Assembly (NCBI GenBank): GCA_965287045.1
Contig: OZ336871.1
Coordinates: forward strand, 31,248,001 to 31,312,000
Direction of reading: 5' to 3'
Length of the DNA stretch: 64,000 bases
Origin: Carcharhinus amblyrhynchos
Lineage: Eukaryota
A model generated the notes under the pieces. That model was not told where the DNA came from. It worked only from the letters and a program-made list of their open reading frames with translations, and made no database searches. The position numbers were made by a program, and so were the translations under genes. Of this stretch, positions 5,880-36,701 are shown one piece after another. How positions within the stretch are numbered: the first letter of the stretch is position 1; every line of letters begins with the position of its first letter.

Positions 5880-6900
5880 GAAGAGTGGTTCCAAGATTAG
5901 TATTTTAAACTAAATATGGGAAATTATGAGGGCATAAAAGCAGAGCTAGCTAAAGTGAACTAACAAATTATGTTAAGGGATAAATAGATAGGGGCAGATG
6001 TTTATGGGATATTTCAGAATACATAGCGTAGATCAATTCCAATGAGAAAGAAAAATTCCACAGGGAGGACATGTCACCTGTAATTAACTAAAAAAGTTAA
6101 ATGTAGTATCAGACTTAAAGAGAAAGCATCTAATCATGCAAACATGAGTGGCAGTTCAGAACCATAAAATCCCTACAGTGCAGAAGGAGGCCATCAAGCC
6201 CATCAGGTCTGCAAAGAACATCCCACCGCTCTATCCCTGTAATCTTGCACATTTACCATGGTTAATCCATCTAACCTGCACATTTATGGACACAAAAGGG
6301 GCAACTTAGCAGGGCCAATCCATCTAACCTGCACATCATTGGACTGTGGGAAGAAACTGGAGCACCCAGAGGAAACCCACACAGATATGAGGAGAACGTG
6401 CAAACTCCACACAGACAGTGACCCAAGCCAGGAATCAAACCAGGTCCCTGGCACTGTGATGCAGCAGTGGTAACCACTGTGCCACCACGCTGCCCATCAG
6501 AAGATTGGACATAATATAAAAAACAGCAAAGGTTGACCAGAAAATTGATAAGAAGGAAAAATTAGAATACGAGAATAATCTATCAAGAAATATAAAGGCG
6601 GATAATAAGAGTTTCTATAGATATTTTAAAAAGAAAAGTATTAATAAGGTGACTGTTGGTCCTATAGAAAGTGAATCTTAGAATTAGTAATGGAAAATAA
6701 GGACATGGCAGAAGGATTGAACAAGTAATTTGTATCCATCTTCACTCTAAGGATACAAGTAACATCCCAGACCTAGCTGTAAATCAGGAGATGGAAGAAA
6801 GGGAGGAACTCAAGAAAATTACAAACACTAAGAAAGTGGTATTGAGAAAAGCATTGTGGGCTGGTAAGTCCCAGGTCCTGAAGGACTTCATCTGAGTGTC
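5880..6900 (+). mobile_element. Degenerate CR1 ORF2 fragment (EN-RT linker), split by a SINE
   Basis: A-rich decayed coding sequence including NIKADNKSFYRYFKKK- and ENKDMAEGLNK-like segments. Confidence 0.7.
6162..6496 (-). mobile_element. HE1/V-SINE, CR1-type tail
   Basis: Reverse complement of the same consensus. Confidence 0.9.
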
Positions 6901-6939
6901 CCATCCAGGAGACAGGAATAAATATGTTCCATATATATA

Positions 6940-7045
6940 ATGAAGGAGCAGTGCTCCGAAAGCTCATGATAACAAATAAACCTGTCGGACTTTAACCTGG
7001 TGTTGTGAGACTTCTTACTGTCCAACGCTGGCATCTCCACATCAC
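6940..7045 (+). mobile_element. Older Penelope-like pseudo-LTR fragment with 5'-truncated hammerhead
   Basis: tgaaGGAGCagtGCTCCgaaagct followed by aataaacctgtcggactttaacctggtgttgtgagacttcttactg...gcatctccacatca. Confidence 0.7.
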
Positions 7046-7256
7046 AGTAAAAAGTCTGACAACACCAGGTTTTAGTCCAACCTATTTATTTGATAATATA
7101 CTCACTAGCTTTCGGGGTTACCCCCTTCGTCAGGTGACGAAGGGGGTAACCCCGAAAGCTAGTGAGTATATTATCAAATAAATAGGTTGGACTAAAACCT
7201 GGTGTTGTCAGACTTTTTACTGTGTTTACGCCAGTCCAACGCCGGCATACCCACAT
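7043..7256. mobile_element. Young Penelope-like insertion: inverted partial pLTR plus direct pLTR, forming a perfect palindrome
   Basis: Arms 7043-7132 and 7135-7224 are exact reverse complements; 14-bp direct repeat catctccacatcac at 7032-7045 and 7257-7270. Confidence 0.8.
7103..7136 (-). ncRNA. Minimal type I hammerhead ribozyme (PLE type)
   Basis: CAC-CUGACGA-A-GGGG(GUAA)CCCC-GAA-AGCU-A^GUG: conserved core, GNRA-capped stem II, palindromic AGCU in place of stem III, CAC/GUG stem I. Confidence 0.7.
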
Positions 7257-7623
7257 CATCTCCACATCACGCCAGACAGAGACAGCTGGCGGAAAAAAAT
7301 TCCAATCACAAGATAAGAATTAAGATATGTTTTGGTTTTAGTATGTGTTCAGAGTTCAGTTTGTTTTCGAGATGCTGTCCAGTACAGTACAGGGGCTGGC
7401 TTCGCAACCAGTCTCAAAGTTTTCTTTTCAGTGCTGCAATGTTAATTTTAAGTTTTGTTCAATAAAGAAACTCATTGTATCGGTGCTGTCTTCGCCTGTT
7501 TAAAGGAATGAATGGATCAAAATGCAAAAGAACTTCAGATTTCAGTAATGCTTCTTTGGCTTCCACAAAAGTGTTATTGCATTGATCTGACTGATATTTC
7601 CGCTTCTCGTTTTGGTACCACAT

Positions 7624-7905
7624 GGGCGGCATAGTGGCACAGTGATTAGCACTGCTGCCTCACAGCACCAGAGACCCGAGTTCAATTCTTGGCTTGGGTC
7701 ACTGTCTGTGTGGAGCCTGCACACTCTCCCCGTGTCTGCATGGGTTTCCTCTGGGTGCTCTGATTTCCTCCCACAGCCATGAAAGACGTGCTGTTTAGGT
7801 GCATTGGCCTGAACAAGTGCCGGAGTATGACAACTCAGGGAATTTCACAGTAACTTCATTGCAGTGTGAATGTAAGCCTTACTTGTGACTAATAAATAAG
7901 CTTTA
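7624..7905 (+). mobile_element. V-SINE with alternative tail (ttcacagtaacttcattgcagtg)
   Basis: Same head and V-domain, different 3' end. Confidence 0.88.
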
Positions 7906-11799: not shown

Positions 11800-13190
11800 T
11801 GTATTCTTTTGGTTGCTGCTGGAGCGGAAGAGGAGGATAAATTGCGGATAGAGGAGGCCCAGGACTTAAAACTTGCAGGAGGAGAGGGAGTCAGCCACTG
11901 GGGACAGGATATGGCTGCCATTCGCCCGGGATGGGAGGGGGGGGTTGCAGAGACACCAGCAGTTCCACACATGGGTGTCTTTCAAGCAGTTGGACATCAC
12001 GTGCCCCGAATGCTCCAGTTCCAAAAGGAGACAGTGCGATACCTGTGCCATTTATTGCGAGACCTGGCACCTCAGGGCACAGGGATGATGGGGGGGGGCA
12101 CCCACTCCCAATGGCTGTGAAATTGATGGCCACCTGAAACCTTTCTGAGACCAAATCCTTTTAACCTGCCAGTGGAGAACTCTGTGGCATCTCACCATCA
12201 TCCATCCACAAGTGTGTTAAGGAGGTCACGGATGCCCTGTATGCCCGGGCCTGGCCGGTGTATTAAATTTGACCTGACCAGGCTCAACAGGAAGGCCCCA
12301 GGCTGCAGGATTCACAGCCATCGCAGCGATGCCAAATGGGCAGGGGCCTGTAGACTGTACCCACGTCACCCTCAAGGCCCTGGTCATGAATCCAGCAAGA
12401 TTCATGAACAAAAAAGGGCTTCCATTCAATAATTGTGCAGTTGGTTTGTGACCATCAGCTGAATATTATGCACATCTACACCAGACATCCTGATAACATA
12501 ACAGCTTTATATTGACGAGCTCAATGGTTTGTGAGTGACATGAGGTACCCACTTTGGATTTGGCTGGTGACGCCTGTGCTAAGGCCTGAGACTGAGGCAG
12601 AGACCCGATACAACGAGGCCCATATTGCCACCTGTAGAATAACAGGGCAGTGCAATAGGGCTCCTCAAAATGCAGTTCAGTTGCCTGGACCACTCTGGCG
12701 GGGCACTCCAGTGCAACCCTACACAACCGCAGCGAGGAGACCTTTTGGAAAAGGAGGATGTGGAGGCAGACCAGCCGGGGTGTCTCTGGAGAGGAAGCGG
12801 CCCAGCAGGAGGAGGAAGGCAATGATGAGCAACGTCAGCCAGACACTAGAGGGCAGTGAGGGTCAGGCAGGCGAGGGCGGTGAGGGTCAGCCAGACACTA
12901 GAGGGCAGTGAGGGTCAGGCAGGCGAGGGCGGTGAGGGTCAACCAGACACTAGAGGGCAGTGAGGGTCAGGCAGGAGAGGGCAGTGAGGGTCAGGCAGAC
13001 AAGGGCAGTGAGGGTCAGCCAGACACTAGAGGGCAGTGAGGGTCAGGCAGGCGAGGGCAGCGAGGGTCAGGCAGGCGAGGGCAGCGAGGGTCAGGCAGGC
13101 GAGGGCAGCGAGGGTCAGGCAGGCGAGGGCAGCGAGGGTCAGGCAGGCGAGGGCAGTCAGGGAGACCCTGATCACCATGCGGTTATGCCA
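11800..13190 (+). pseudogene. Harbinger (HARBI1-like) DDE transposase pseudogene
   Basis: FQKETVRYLCHLLRDL, HPLPMAVK, GELCGISPSSIHKCVKEVTDAL, GPVDCTHV, FMNKKGFHSIIVQLVCD, YPLWIWLVTP...ETRYNEAH, terminal VRETLI; frameshifted. Confidence 0.88.
12834..13158 (+). repeat. GC-rich minisatellite of 24-bp and 28-bp units
   Basis: gagggcagcgagggtcaggcaggc units interspersed with gagggYRgtgagggtcagccagacacta units; 52-bp higher-order period at the start. Confidence 0.95.
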
Positions 13191-13339
13191 CTGGGAGTCT
13201 ACGTTGCCACACGTTCGTTCCATTCCCTACTCCCCCCTCCCCAACTCCCCTACAATTACCTACAATATTGTAACACTGGAGTGGTGGGCCTGGGTACACT
13301 GTGTCAGTGAGTTTCTGTGGCAGACAGGAGGGTGATGAC

Positions 13340-21210: not shown

Positions 21211-22105
21211 AGAACATAAGAACATAAGAAATAGGAGCAGGAGTAGGCCATCTAGCCCCTTGAGCCTGCCCCGCCATTCAATAAGATCATGGCTGATCTG
21301 TCGTGGCTCAGTTCCACTTTCCCACCCTCTCCCCATAACCCTTAATCCCCTCTCTTATCAAAAACCCATCAACCTGTGTCTTAAAAATATTTAGCGAGGT
21401 AGCCTCCACCACTTCAACGGGCAGAGAATTCCAGAGATTCACCACGCTTTGAGTGAAGAAGTTCCTCCTCAACTCCGTTCTAAACAGCCCCCCCTTTATC
21501 TTGAGGCTGTGCCTCCTAGTCCTACTGTCCTTTCTGAGCGGGAAGAGTCTCTCCACCTCTATCCTATCCATCCCATTCATCATCTTATACGTCTCAATGA
21601 GATCTCCCCTCATTCTTCTAAACTCTAACAAGTACAAGCCTAGTTTATTCAGCCTCTCCTCATAGCTCAACCCCCTCAACTCCGGCATCAGCCTAGTAAA
21701 CCTCCTCTGCACTCCCTCCAAGGCCAAAATATCCTTGTGTAAGTGCGGCGACCAAAACTGCACACAGTACTCCAGCTGCGGCCTCACCAGTACCCTATAC
21801 AGCTGCAGCAAGACCTCCCTACTTTTATATTCAATCCCCCTCGCTATGAAGGCCAGCATCCCATTCGCCTTCCTGACCACCTGCTGCACCTGCAAGCTGG
21901 GTTTTTGCGACTCATGCACAAGGACCCCCAGGTCCCTCTGCACCGCTGCCTGCTGCAGTTTTTCGCCCCATAAGGAATAGTCCTTCCTACCATTATTCCT
22001 ACCAAAGTGGACCACCTCGCACTTGCCAACATTAAATTCCATTTGCCAGTTCCTGGCCCATTCGCCCAGCCTATCTAGATCCTTCTGCAGACTCTCCACA
22101 CCCAC
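21211..22105 (-). mobile_element. Young 5'-truncated CR1 (HER1-like) LINE
   Basis: Open ORF2 C-terminus LQKDLDRLGEWA..WQMEFNVGKC..RPQLEYCVQFWSP..GKWN*, 3' UTR and (ttcttatg)n tail. Confidence 0.95.
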
Positions 22106-23272: not shown

Positions 23273-23342
23273 GTCCTTAACATGAATGTGAGTGAACACA
23301 GACCAAAATCAAATTTGACTGTAACGCTGATTATATTCATAT

Positions 23343-23454
23343 AGTGAGAAGTCTCACAACACCAGTAACCACCAAATAAACCTGTTGGACTTTAACCTGG
23401 TGGTGAAACTTCTTATTGTGCTTACTTCAGCCCAACGCCAGCAATTCCACATCA
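23343..23454 (+). mobile_element. Short Penelope-like insertion (inverted 5' piece plus pLTR)
   Basis: Homologous to 6960-7045; direct repeat tatattcatatagt at 23332-23345 and 23455-23468. Confidence 0.75.
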
Positions 23455-24128
23455 TATATTCATATAGTCGGCTAATATATGGCCTGGAATTCTTAGCACC
23501 TTGCCCGCCACAGAATTGGAGCAGGCGAGGGTCCAACAACGTGGACCTTGGGCGGGAATTTCCAATCTCACCCATAAATGCAAATTGCTGACTTGGCTGA
23601 GGTAACAGAAAGAAGTCGCGACCTGTAAAGACACACCAAGTCTTTGCATTTAATGTTGCAAAATGTCCTAAGAAGCTGCTCAGAAACATAATCAAACAAA
23701 AATTGACACGGATCCAGGGAACAAAGCATTGCTGGGAGATGCTTCATTTGTACAGAAGGCGGGGTTGTGCATTACGACAAACGGTGTAGCCCTCACCTCC
23801 AACTAGCATTCCCTTTGCTTTCTTGCAGGCAAACAAGGAGAGCTCCAGATTCCCAGCTCAGATCAGTGTCAGACAGTTTGAACCAAGGCCCAGGAAAGAA
23901 TGAAACAGTAAATCTGCTGAAGATCATGGGTGAGGGGAAAGGCAGCTTGCAGTAAACCCCAGACTAGGAATATCAATGCCATACTGTTCAGTGAGACTGA
24001 AACTAATTCTTCCAATATTATAGTGACGTGCTGAGGATAACAGCCAATGTCAATAAAAAGCAACACACCAGGGTAAGTAATAGGATTTATTTTAATATCA
24101 AACAAAAATATACACAAGCTTCCAAACT

Positions 24129-35770: not shown

Positions 35771-36185
35771 AGTTTTTTGGGCTCTGGTGTGATGCTGAAT
35801 TAACCACTATTCGAGTGCAAGAATTGACAGTACACACCAGCAGGTTTTTGGTTGCAAAGTATCACCAGTGAACCCAATCTGTCTCCAATCGATAATCTCA
35901 TGCAAACTTCCAGCAACAGTTGCTGGATATTAATCAGGAACAGGAATCTAGCTGGTTTTCTGCCTTTATAATGCAATGACACTGAGGCCAATGCAGCACT
36001 CACACTGTCATTTCAGATGAACTTAGTGCTGTCCCAGAGCCAAAGGTGATCATTTCCTCAGCTGTCAGCCCATCTGCTCCTTAGCATCAAATATTTTGGC
36101 TGTAAAAGAAACTCGGCTGCTCAGTGAGATGGTCATTAGGTTTTTCACTTAGTAGTTATGTAATATAATCATTACAGGGCAGCAT

Positions 36186-36701
36186 TTGGCCCTGGAGGGA
36201 GTGCAGAGGAGGTTTACTAGGCTGATACCGGAGTTGAGGGGATTGAGCTATGAGGAGAGGCTGAATAAACTAGGCTTGTACTCGTTAGAGTTTAGAAGAA
36301 TGAGGGGAGATCTCATTGAGACGTATAAGATGATGAATGGGATGGATAGGATAGAGGTGGAGAGACTCTTCCCGCTCAAAAAAGACAGTAGGACTAGGGG
36401 GTACAGCCTCAAGATAAAGGGGAGGCGGTTTAGAACGGAGTTGAGGAGGAACTTCTTCACTCAAAGGGTGGTGAATCTCTGGAATTCTCTGCCCGTTGAA
36501 GTGGTGGAGGCTGCCTCGCTAAATATTTTTAAGAAGCGGGTTGATGGGTTCTTGATAAGAGAGGGGATTAAGGGTTATGGGGAGAGGGCGGGAAAGTGGA
36601 ACTGAGCCACGACAGATCAGCCATGATCTTATTGAATGGCGGGGCAGGCTCGAAGGGCTAGATGGCCTACTCCTGCTCCTATTTCTTATGTTCTTATGTT
36701 C
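36186..36701 (+). mobile_element. Young 5'-truncated CR1 LINE, same subfamily as 21211-22105, inserted in a SINE head
   Basis: ALEGVQRRFTRLIPELRGLSYEERL...GKWN*, same 3' UTR; flanked by gggcagca and tggtggcacagtgg. Confidence 0.95.

Follow-up and report, generated by a model that had tools for sequence, protein, structure and literature searches.

A perfect palindrome carrying a minimal hammerhead ribozyme on its minus strand lies in the 64-kb stretch of Carcharhinus amblyrhynchos DNA analysed here (64,000 nucleotides; the window), and it raises the question of whether the palindrome is a mobile ribozyme-bearing unit in its own right or a fragment of something larger, and of how its two arms came to stand head to head. 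As originally predicted, the arms 7043–7132 and 7135–7224 are exact reverse complements over 90 bp, separated by a GG spacer; no other perfect palindrome with arms of at least 12 bp (spacers of 0–10) was detected in the window. The 211-bp structure is a head-to-head stump left by a young Penelope-like retrotransposon (PLE) that codes for protein, and it consists of the parts below, where element positions are counted from the A of the ORF start codon (ATG) as +1 and TSD stands for target-site duplication.

7028 to 7030, plus strand: left half-site CTG of the palindromic target (TG at 7029–7030), lying in host DNA and separated by 2 nt from the duplicated core; fits TG-NN-[13 nt]-NN-CA.
7032 to 7045, plus strand: left TSD copy, 14 nt shared, with the motif-fixed 13-nt core at 7033–7045; also the 3' end of the older stump.
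7046 to 7137, minus strand: inverted arm without tail, element positions -37 to -128.
7102 to 7137, minus strand: minimal type I hammerhead with an intact core, a 4-bp stem I, a 4-bp stem II and a palindromic AGCU stem III; predicted cut at 7106/7105.
7135 to 7137, either strand: 3-nt arm-joining microhomology (TGA/TCA), the overlap of both arms.
7134 to 7165, plus strand: broken hammerhead copy, with G for C3 and the 5' strand of stem I missing.
7135 to 7257, plus strand: forward arm, element positions -123 to -1.
7222 to 7257, plus strand: one-sided 36-nt "tail" between the two start sites, ending just 5' of the ORF ATG in full-length copies.
7257 to 7270, plus strand: right TSD copy, core at 7258–7270.
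7273 to 7275, plus strand: right half of the palindromic target site, CAG, fitting the target rule.
6940 to 7045, plus strand: older Penelope-like stump, about 70% identical, with a GGAGC/GCUCC stem II and a core that has lost CUG; the young copy is inserted in its tail.

The limits originally assigned to the feature, 7032–7270, coincide with the outer ends of the two copies of the 14-nt stretch (7032–7045 and 7257–7270), that is, with the TSD. The first three nucleotides of the perfect arm (7043–7045) are part of the TSD and match the RNA as microhomology, and the insertion site reads CTG-GC-[13]-GC-CAG, with a 13-nt core. Both arms correspond to the last 123–128 nt of the element, and the forward arm showed 0/122 differences from the 3' ends of three long copies (L072, L075, and L076), supporting the recent insertion that had been proposed; a coding element thus left a young and very short copy of itself here. 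Taken alone, the stump is an ordinary dead copy. Cruciform extrusion is plausible for such a perfect 90-bp palindrome, the DNA hairpin energy of which is predicted at about -109 kcal/mol.

A search of the animal's own genome with 7135–7265 gave 40 scored places at 98–100% identity, and the upstream DNA led into an ORF with reverse transcriptase (RT) and GIY-YIG motifs, so that both the near-identical copies and the linked RT/GIY-YIG master element anticipated by the original prediction were found. The suspected Penelope-like origin is supported, as the arms are the 3' end of this coding element, and the proposed "non-coding derivative" is not borne out, as the same element has open full-length ORFs elsewhere in the genome. 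Among 20 long copies fetched, L068 and L078 carry open 893-aa RT plus GIY-YIG ORFs; in both, an inverted copy is followed by a partial tandem, the ORF, and a pseudo-LTR (pLTR), and partial tandems forming pLTRs are present in these two and in L080. The RVT_1 domain of Pfam scored 37.2 bits, above the cut-off of 29.6, and GIY-YIG was below the cut-off on one copy (20.6 versus 22.6 bits) and absent from the listed matches of another, the domain call being based on motifs and on the Pfam rows of relatives. The C-terminal GIY-YIG has two Cys residues between GIY and YIG (CCHH), reading IVYLIRCKKGCPEAWYIGET, followed by His residues. A structure model of the ORF had a pLDDT of 89 and telomerase RTs (TERT) as the top solved folds, with residues 6–127 predicted to be helical; the nearest named relatives are shark proteins at 79–91%.

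The family is abundant. Exact copies in the genome numbered 997 for the 33-mer of the window hammerhead, 2148 for the 33-mer of a sister variant, 3598 for an older 28-mer pattern, and 15,047 for a 34-mer of the pLTR, and thousands of near-perfect palindromes have been seeded in the genome by this family. In the first 100 matches listed for the window hammerhead, a count by eye gave 27 pairs in minus/plus order within 3.5 kb and none in plus/minus order. A set of 42 loci was assembled from 25 of those pairs, 15 single matches that were fetched, and two pairs already in hand; complete head-to-head insertions were found at 34 of them, where the inverted arm begins between -29 and -50 and the TSD measures 12–15 nt, in agreement with the inverted 5' partial repeat that had been suggested, and for the other eight the script found no tail-bearing arm. 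Across loci, the arms range from about 30 to 2900 nt, reaching into the ORF, and the central junction varies, that of the window occurring in none of the other fetched loci. The start sites are common to the family, one arm beginning at the ORF start codon (-3 to +5) and the other about 37 nt upstream. At another locus (L012:740-1640), a young insertion abuts a short head-to-head stump that is about 92% alike, with the same 12–14-mer present three times, as if the same site had been hit twice; the arm ends, ..TTACTG, may supply a new TG half-site there.

What the insertions share outside the element is the target. The survey began with 90 loci; in 67 of them, the inverted arm started at the fixed site and a stretch of 10–16 nt was repeated exactly at both ends, and the motif was scored only where the exact TSD was at least 12 nt (63 of the 90 loci). 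In the 31 loci whose shared stretch was exactly 12 nt, which could be placed without reference to any motif, T at -4 was present in 31/31, G at -3 in 30/31, C at +3 in 31/31, and A at +4 in 30/31, with C at -5 in 20/31 and G at +5 in 23/31, and the inside of the stretch was unremarkable. Altogether, 60 of the 63 insertions fit cTG-NN-[12-13-nt TSD]-NN-CAg, 47 with a 12-nt and 13 with a 13-nt core, compared with a mean of 0.88 and a maximum of 5 out of 63 fitting TG-N16/17-CA at random host positions (3000 draws). The first held-out set was of the sister variant: 30 loci gave 22 merged rows, 10 of them head-to-head with a 12–16-nt TSD, and after removal of one repeat, eight of the nine new loci fit the rule, as did two forward-only copies with a TSD. 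In the second held-out set of 16 loci, 10 had a TSD of this kind and eight of these fit, bringing the held-out total to 16/19. Because TG-N16/17-CA occurs 796 times in 64 kb, the site is loose, and the rule is one of recognition rather than R2-like targeting of a single site. It is established for the young family only, since one of three scorable loci of the older GGAGC family fits. A preference for "ATC after the tail", seen in the first 30 loci, was discarded as a selection effect of the query.

The two arms also tend to end together. Their 5' ends were at most 50 nt apart in 21 of 34 loci (permutation mean 7.8, maximum 17 in 50,000), in 17 of 22 loci of the first set (permutation mean 5.7; three loci with the inverted arm off the fixed site dropped, and two loci shared with the 34-locus set), and in 7 of 14 held-out loci (mean 2.4, p 5e-4), the coupled cases including arms of 830, 1330–1400, and 1710 nt. 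In the other 13 of the 34 loci, the ends were more than 50 nt apart, and only 2 of 13 loci picked for a long arm were coupled, indicating that the coupling is not universal. The differences between arm ends centre on zero with both signs, and either arm can be the longer one. That the two RTs stop at the same time was considered and rejected, because it predicts that the inverted arm extends about 36 nt further. Where the arms begin, at least one nucleotide of the target primer matched the RNA in 25 of 41 loci on the tail side and in 25 of 39 on the inverted side, compared with 27% by chance, and the match was zero in 16/41 and 14/39, respectively.

We therefore consider it quite probable that the stump, of a young coding PLE in a cTG-N17-CAg site, is the one-step product of two cDNAs, each primed at one end of a staggered cut. 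For the family as a whole, we lean somewhat towards a Neptune-type element in which a dimer reads cTG-N16/17-CAg, makes a 12–13-nt staggered cut, and copies one RNA twice from two fixed start sites. The RT/GIY-YIG protein would act as a dimer reading the two half-sites, and each strand would be nicked 2 nt inside its half-site to leave 12–13-nt 3' overhangs; such a dimer nicking both strands is suggested by the two-fold symmetry of the site and the fixed stagger. Each 3' end would then pair over 0–5 nt with the RNA at one start site and be extended. As the two minus-strand cDNAs often appear to stop nearly together, the best fit is a single 5'-broken RNA copied twice, a reading that is based on the equal stopping points and on private variants (three two-armed loci share, between their own arms, a block absent from every other locus). 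The cDNAs would finally be joined by microhomology, TGA/TCA in the window, and unequal pairs of arms could be due to early drop-off, to two RNAs, or to later loss at the centre of long palindromes. The dimer, the nick positions, and the order of priming are all inferred from junctions. In L1 twin priming, cDNA synthesis likewise starts from both target ends and microhomology joins the products, as would be the case here, but the L1 segments are different parts of the RNA, whereas those of the window family overlap and so form a palindrome, with a fixed second start site.

The closest biochemical precedent is the Poseidon protein of Anolis carolinensis (PAc), which in the accessible text of its study cuts and extends both strands in vitro, starts reverse transcription at two sites, one at either end of the tail, and is predicted to dimerise by a long N-terminal helix, its pLTR hammerhead being dispensable for insertion in vitro (PMC11167929). 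Since the primer–RNA match is above chance at two fixed sites like those of PAc, both arms of the window family are best read as primed cDNAs. The main rival, which we regard as unlikely, is that a single cDNA folds back, by self-priming and possibly with an antisense template, copies to the -37 site, and joins the other DNA end, as has been proposed for palindromic PLE junctions in what is available of PMC3846280. Fold-back would also yield coupled truncation points, as observed, and would leave short inverted matches in the middle of the palindrome, TCA-GG-TGA being an example in the window. However, a fold-back of the tail-primed strand should leave the forward arm longer, yet among the 21 coupled loci, the inverted arm was longer in seven (by 11–26 nt) and the forward arm in four (by 12–48 nt), and the tail cannot come from a fold-back of the other strand. 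Moreover, the fixed start of the inverted arm agrees with the second of the RT start sites that were mapped in vitro, according to the accessible part of PMC11167929, in favour of priming from both ends.

With regard to the hammerhead, the minus strand from 7137 to 7102 reads UCAC-CUGACGA-A-GGGG(GUAA)CCCC-GAAA-GCU-A^GUGA, with the sequence and the cut at 7106/7105 just as first described, and the assignment to the minimal, dimer-type class holds, the family having CUGANGA and GAAA cores, stems I and II, a palindromic stem III, and no G at H17. Stem I has 4 bp in the window compared with 6 bp in untruncated copies of the family (stem II 4 bp). An Rfam scan, in which minimal forms are modelled poorly, gave no hammerhead match at E <= 1 and only chance matches to miRNA hairpins. 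The ribozyme had been called intact, which is correct for the minus-strand sequence, but the plus-strand copy is broken and the minus-strand copy is predicted to be trapped in a hairpin: a read-through RNA of the locus folds in prediction as a long 90-bp hairpin at -177.9 kcal/mol and reaches -127.4 kcal/mol when the hammerhead stems are forced, at a cost of about 50 kcal/mol, and a 51-nt minus-strand piece is also predicted to favour the central hairpin. The hammerhead is best read as cargo of the pLTR, conserved in the family and likely idle at this locus.

Among 236 hammerhead motifs in the fetched loci, a sample biased by the fact that loci were partly picked with search patterns fixing these letters, C3 was present in 234 and GCU in 233, and H17 was A, U, or C in 136, 90, and 10 cases and never G. 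Stem II variants in these loci paired over at least 3 bp in 19 of 23 cases (mean 3.5 versus 0.64 when shuffled), and the compensatory swaps in the family comprise pair 2 (GAGG/CCUC) and pair 3 (GGAGC/GCUCC). The core conservation and stem II covariation expected among copies are present in this sample, and selection on the hammerhead fold at the family level is likely; template switching in hairpins can, we infer, mimic covariation of stem II. The more local argument, that stem II differs fully from that of the neighbouring stump and yet pairs, holds in part: GGAGC/GCUCC and GGGG/CCCC have pairs 1, 2, and 4 in common, differ by a compensatory A-U for G-C at pair 3, and by one extra pair. Stem II is far more variable than the rest of the family, which is 98–99% identical. 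One locus (L068:2150-5830) has two variants, GAGGG/CCCUC upstream and GAGG/CCUC in the 3' pLTR, suggesting that two templates were used or that the change arose locally. In addition, GTGAGT stands at the hammerhead cut site in 7162–7236 (plus strand) and in the pLTR of L078, with a T-rich tract about 74 nt further on that ends in CCAG, and this stretch looks like a candidate small intron; in a Drosophila element, an intron overlaps the hammerhead, as stated in the accessible part of PMC4209133.

These data also bear on a mobile non-coding ribozyme element of the retrozyme or MITE kind, in which the palindrome itself would be the unit. Such an element would account for the many short palindromic copies in the genome, and non-autonomous retrozymes are stated to derive from pLTRs in the portion of bioRxiv 10.64898/2026.07.22.740005 at hand. 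It is, however, largely refuted and very improbable, given that the junction and the arm length vary by locus, as described above, that the locus is a head-to-head stump without the head-to-tail array of non-coding units that marks non-LTR retrozymes, and that its read-through RNA is predicted to be a closed hairpin. Preservation of an older, imperfect inverted repeat by gene conversion, or by selection for a cruciform or hairpin RNA, would fit the zero mismatches over 90 bp and the strong DNA hairpin, and arm homogenisation had been offered in the original prediction as an alternative to youth. We give it an equally slight chance, since both arms equal hundreds of copies elsewhere, identical 88-nt arm blocks were found in 39 of 52 two-armed loci, and the other 13 retain differences, mostly one or two changes or changes at the arm end, several of them at CpG. 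Perfect arms are the norm in this family, and youth and a common template explain them, so that homogenisation is not needed.

An assembly or library artefact (a fold-back chimera) is next to inconceivable, in spite of the difficulty of assembling palindromes and of the lack of a spanning contig among those listed, because a chimera would yield neither a TSD nor a one-sided tail nor a target site typical of the family, and the layout recurs at dozens of loci. The public contigs aligned to 6600–7700 are dominated by paralogues. A contig in X1 (7238–7386, 0 differences) and another in X4, from another sample (7239–7386, 1 difference), cross the right junction, each with 18–19 element letters where 31 are needed for bridging. 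Contigs in X21 and X5, two other organisms, start at 7257 with 7 and 11 letters unaligned and would fit an empty site.

The family belongs to the EN+ PLEs, with which it shares a single ORF with a telomerase-like RT, a CCHH GIY-YIG domain, pLTR tandems, and an inverted 5'-truncated copy with a one-sided tail and a TSD. The complex insertions of EN+ PLEs are described in the available passages of PMC8557442, PMC3846280, and PMC8969392 as an inverted 5'-truncated copy with a 30–40-bp tail on one side and a TSD, and the head-to-head layout, the 36-nt one-sided tail, the TSD, and the partial tandems in full-length copies are alike here. In contrast, the copies in those passages have 8–10-bp TSDs (rotifer) or a microsatellite bias (Neptune, Naiad, Chlamys, and Hydra), and the same passages contain neither a fixed-spacing palindromic target nor coupled arm truncation, both of which are found in the window family. 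Between RT and endonuclease, the protein has a CX4CxxC linker motif (CHSNLCKTC; present in 35/40 aligned rows), and a CX2-5CxxC linker marks Neptune and Nematis and is lacking in Penelope/Poseidon in the relevant part of PMC8557442. The Neptune type is assigned from the linker motif, which Nematis shares, and an initial reading as the Poseidon clade was dropped on the same motif. The microsatellite bias reported for Neptune was not seen in the 67 flanks, which are mixed sequence with TG..CA half-sites. PAc is alike in its two RT start sites bounding the tail, its pLTR hammerhead, and its predicted N-terminal helix, but it belongs to Penelope/Poseidon and has an ORF that begins within the hammerhead and a preference for ATT in vitro (PMC11167929, as far as available), whereas the window family has its ORF start at the tail end, the CX4CxxC linker, and the target cTG-N16/17-CAg. 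The minimal hammerheads of metazoan pLTRs, as covered in the accessible part of PMC4209133, in which sharks are unnamed, share with this family the bulged base before stem II, the G10.1-C11.1 pair, the palindromic 15.2/16.2, the lack of a stable stem III, the variable stem II, and opposite-strand pairs 100–700 bp apart; they differ in that stem II is short here (4–5 bp) and the hammerhead here is known from sequence.

The layout of an inverted truncated copy, a 36-nt one-sided tail, and a TSD has already been published, and the stump and its hammerhead are of a known kind; as far as the literature searches reached, the new elements are the palindromic target and the coupling statistics. These searches, of sources partly available, found no report of a palindromic target or two-ended priming for PLEs, nor of coupled arm truncation, and older papers and Repbase may hold target data and bear on the coupling as well. 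The accessible portions of PMC9977147, PMC12602865, and PMC6765202 contain no palindromic PLE target or two-ended priming, and the text supplements of PMC11167929 make no mention of target, tail, TSD, or inversion, although its figures S1–S2 may bear on target preference. The locus is ordinary, and it is the family rule that is useful. The origin of the inverted repeats and tails of PLEs is still called undefined in the available parts of PMC8557442 and PMC11167929. If the proposed mechanism is true, the inverted pLTR, the one-sided tail, and the TSD would all follow from a single symmetric double priming, integration would amount to a restriction enzyme coupled to two polymerases, and the site would be the first defined target substrate for double priming. 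With a near-invariant palindromic target, a fixed stagger, and two fixed start sites, and with open ORFs and young copies in the thousands, the question is open to a simple assay for which the substrate, the nick positions, and the products are all predicted.

Several other features were recorded in the window. The palindrome is located about 19 kb beyond the final coding exon of a minus-strand RBR E3 ligase gene (26254–57478) and is therefore not intronic; from its exon sequences, we take the gene to be RNF144-like, with exons near 57.4k, 34.0k, 29.2k (IBR, Pfam), and 27.4k, followed by the transmembrane exon near 26.4k that ends the gene. At 23331–23467 there is another Penelope-like stump, older and likewise head-to-head, with a 14-nt repeat at both ends; its 12-nt core is preceded by CTG-AT and followed by GT-CGG, one base off the target rule. 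Two LINE 3' fragments (21212–21728 and 36185–36701), presumably CR1-like, are 96% identical and stand in opposite orientation 14 kb apart, and a tandem array with 24/28-nt spacing occupies 12788–13226.
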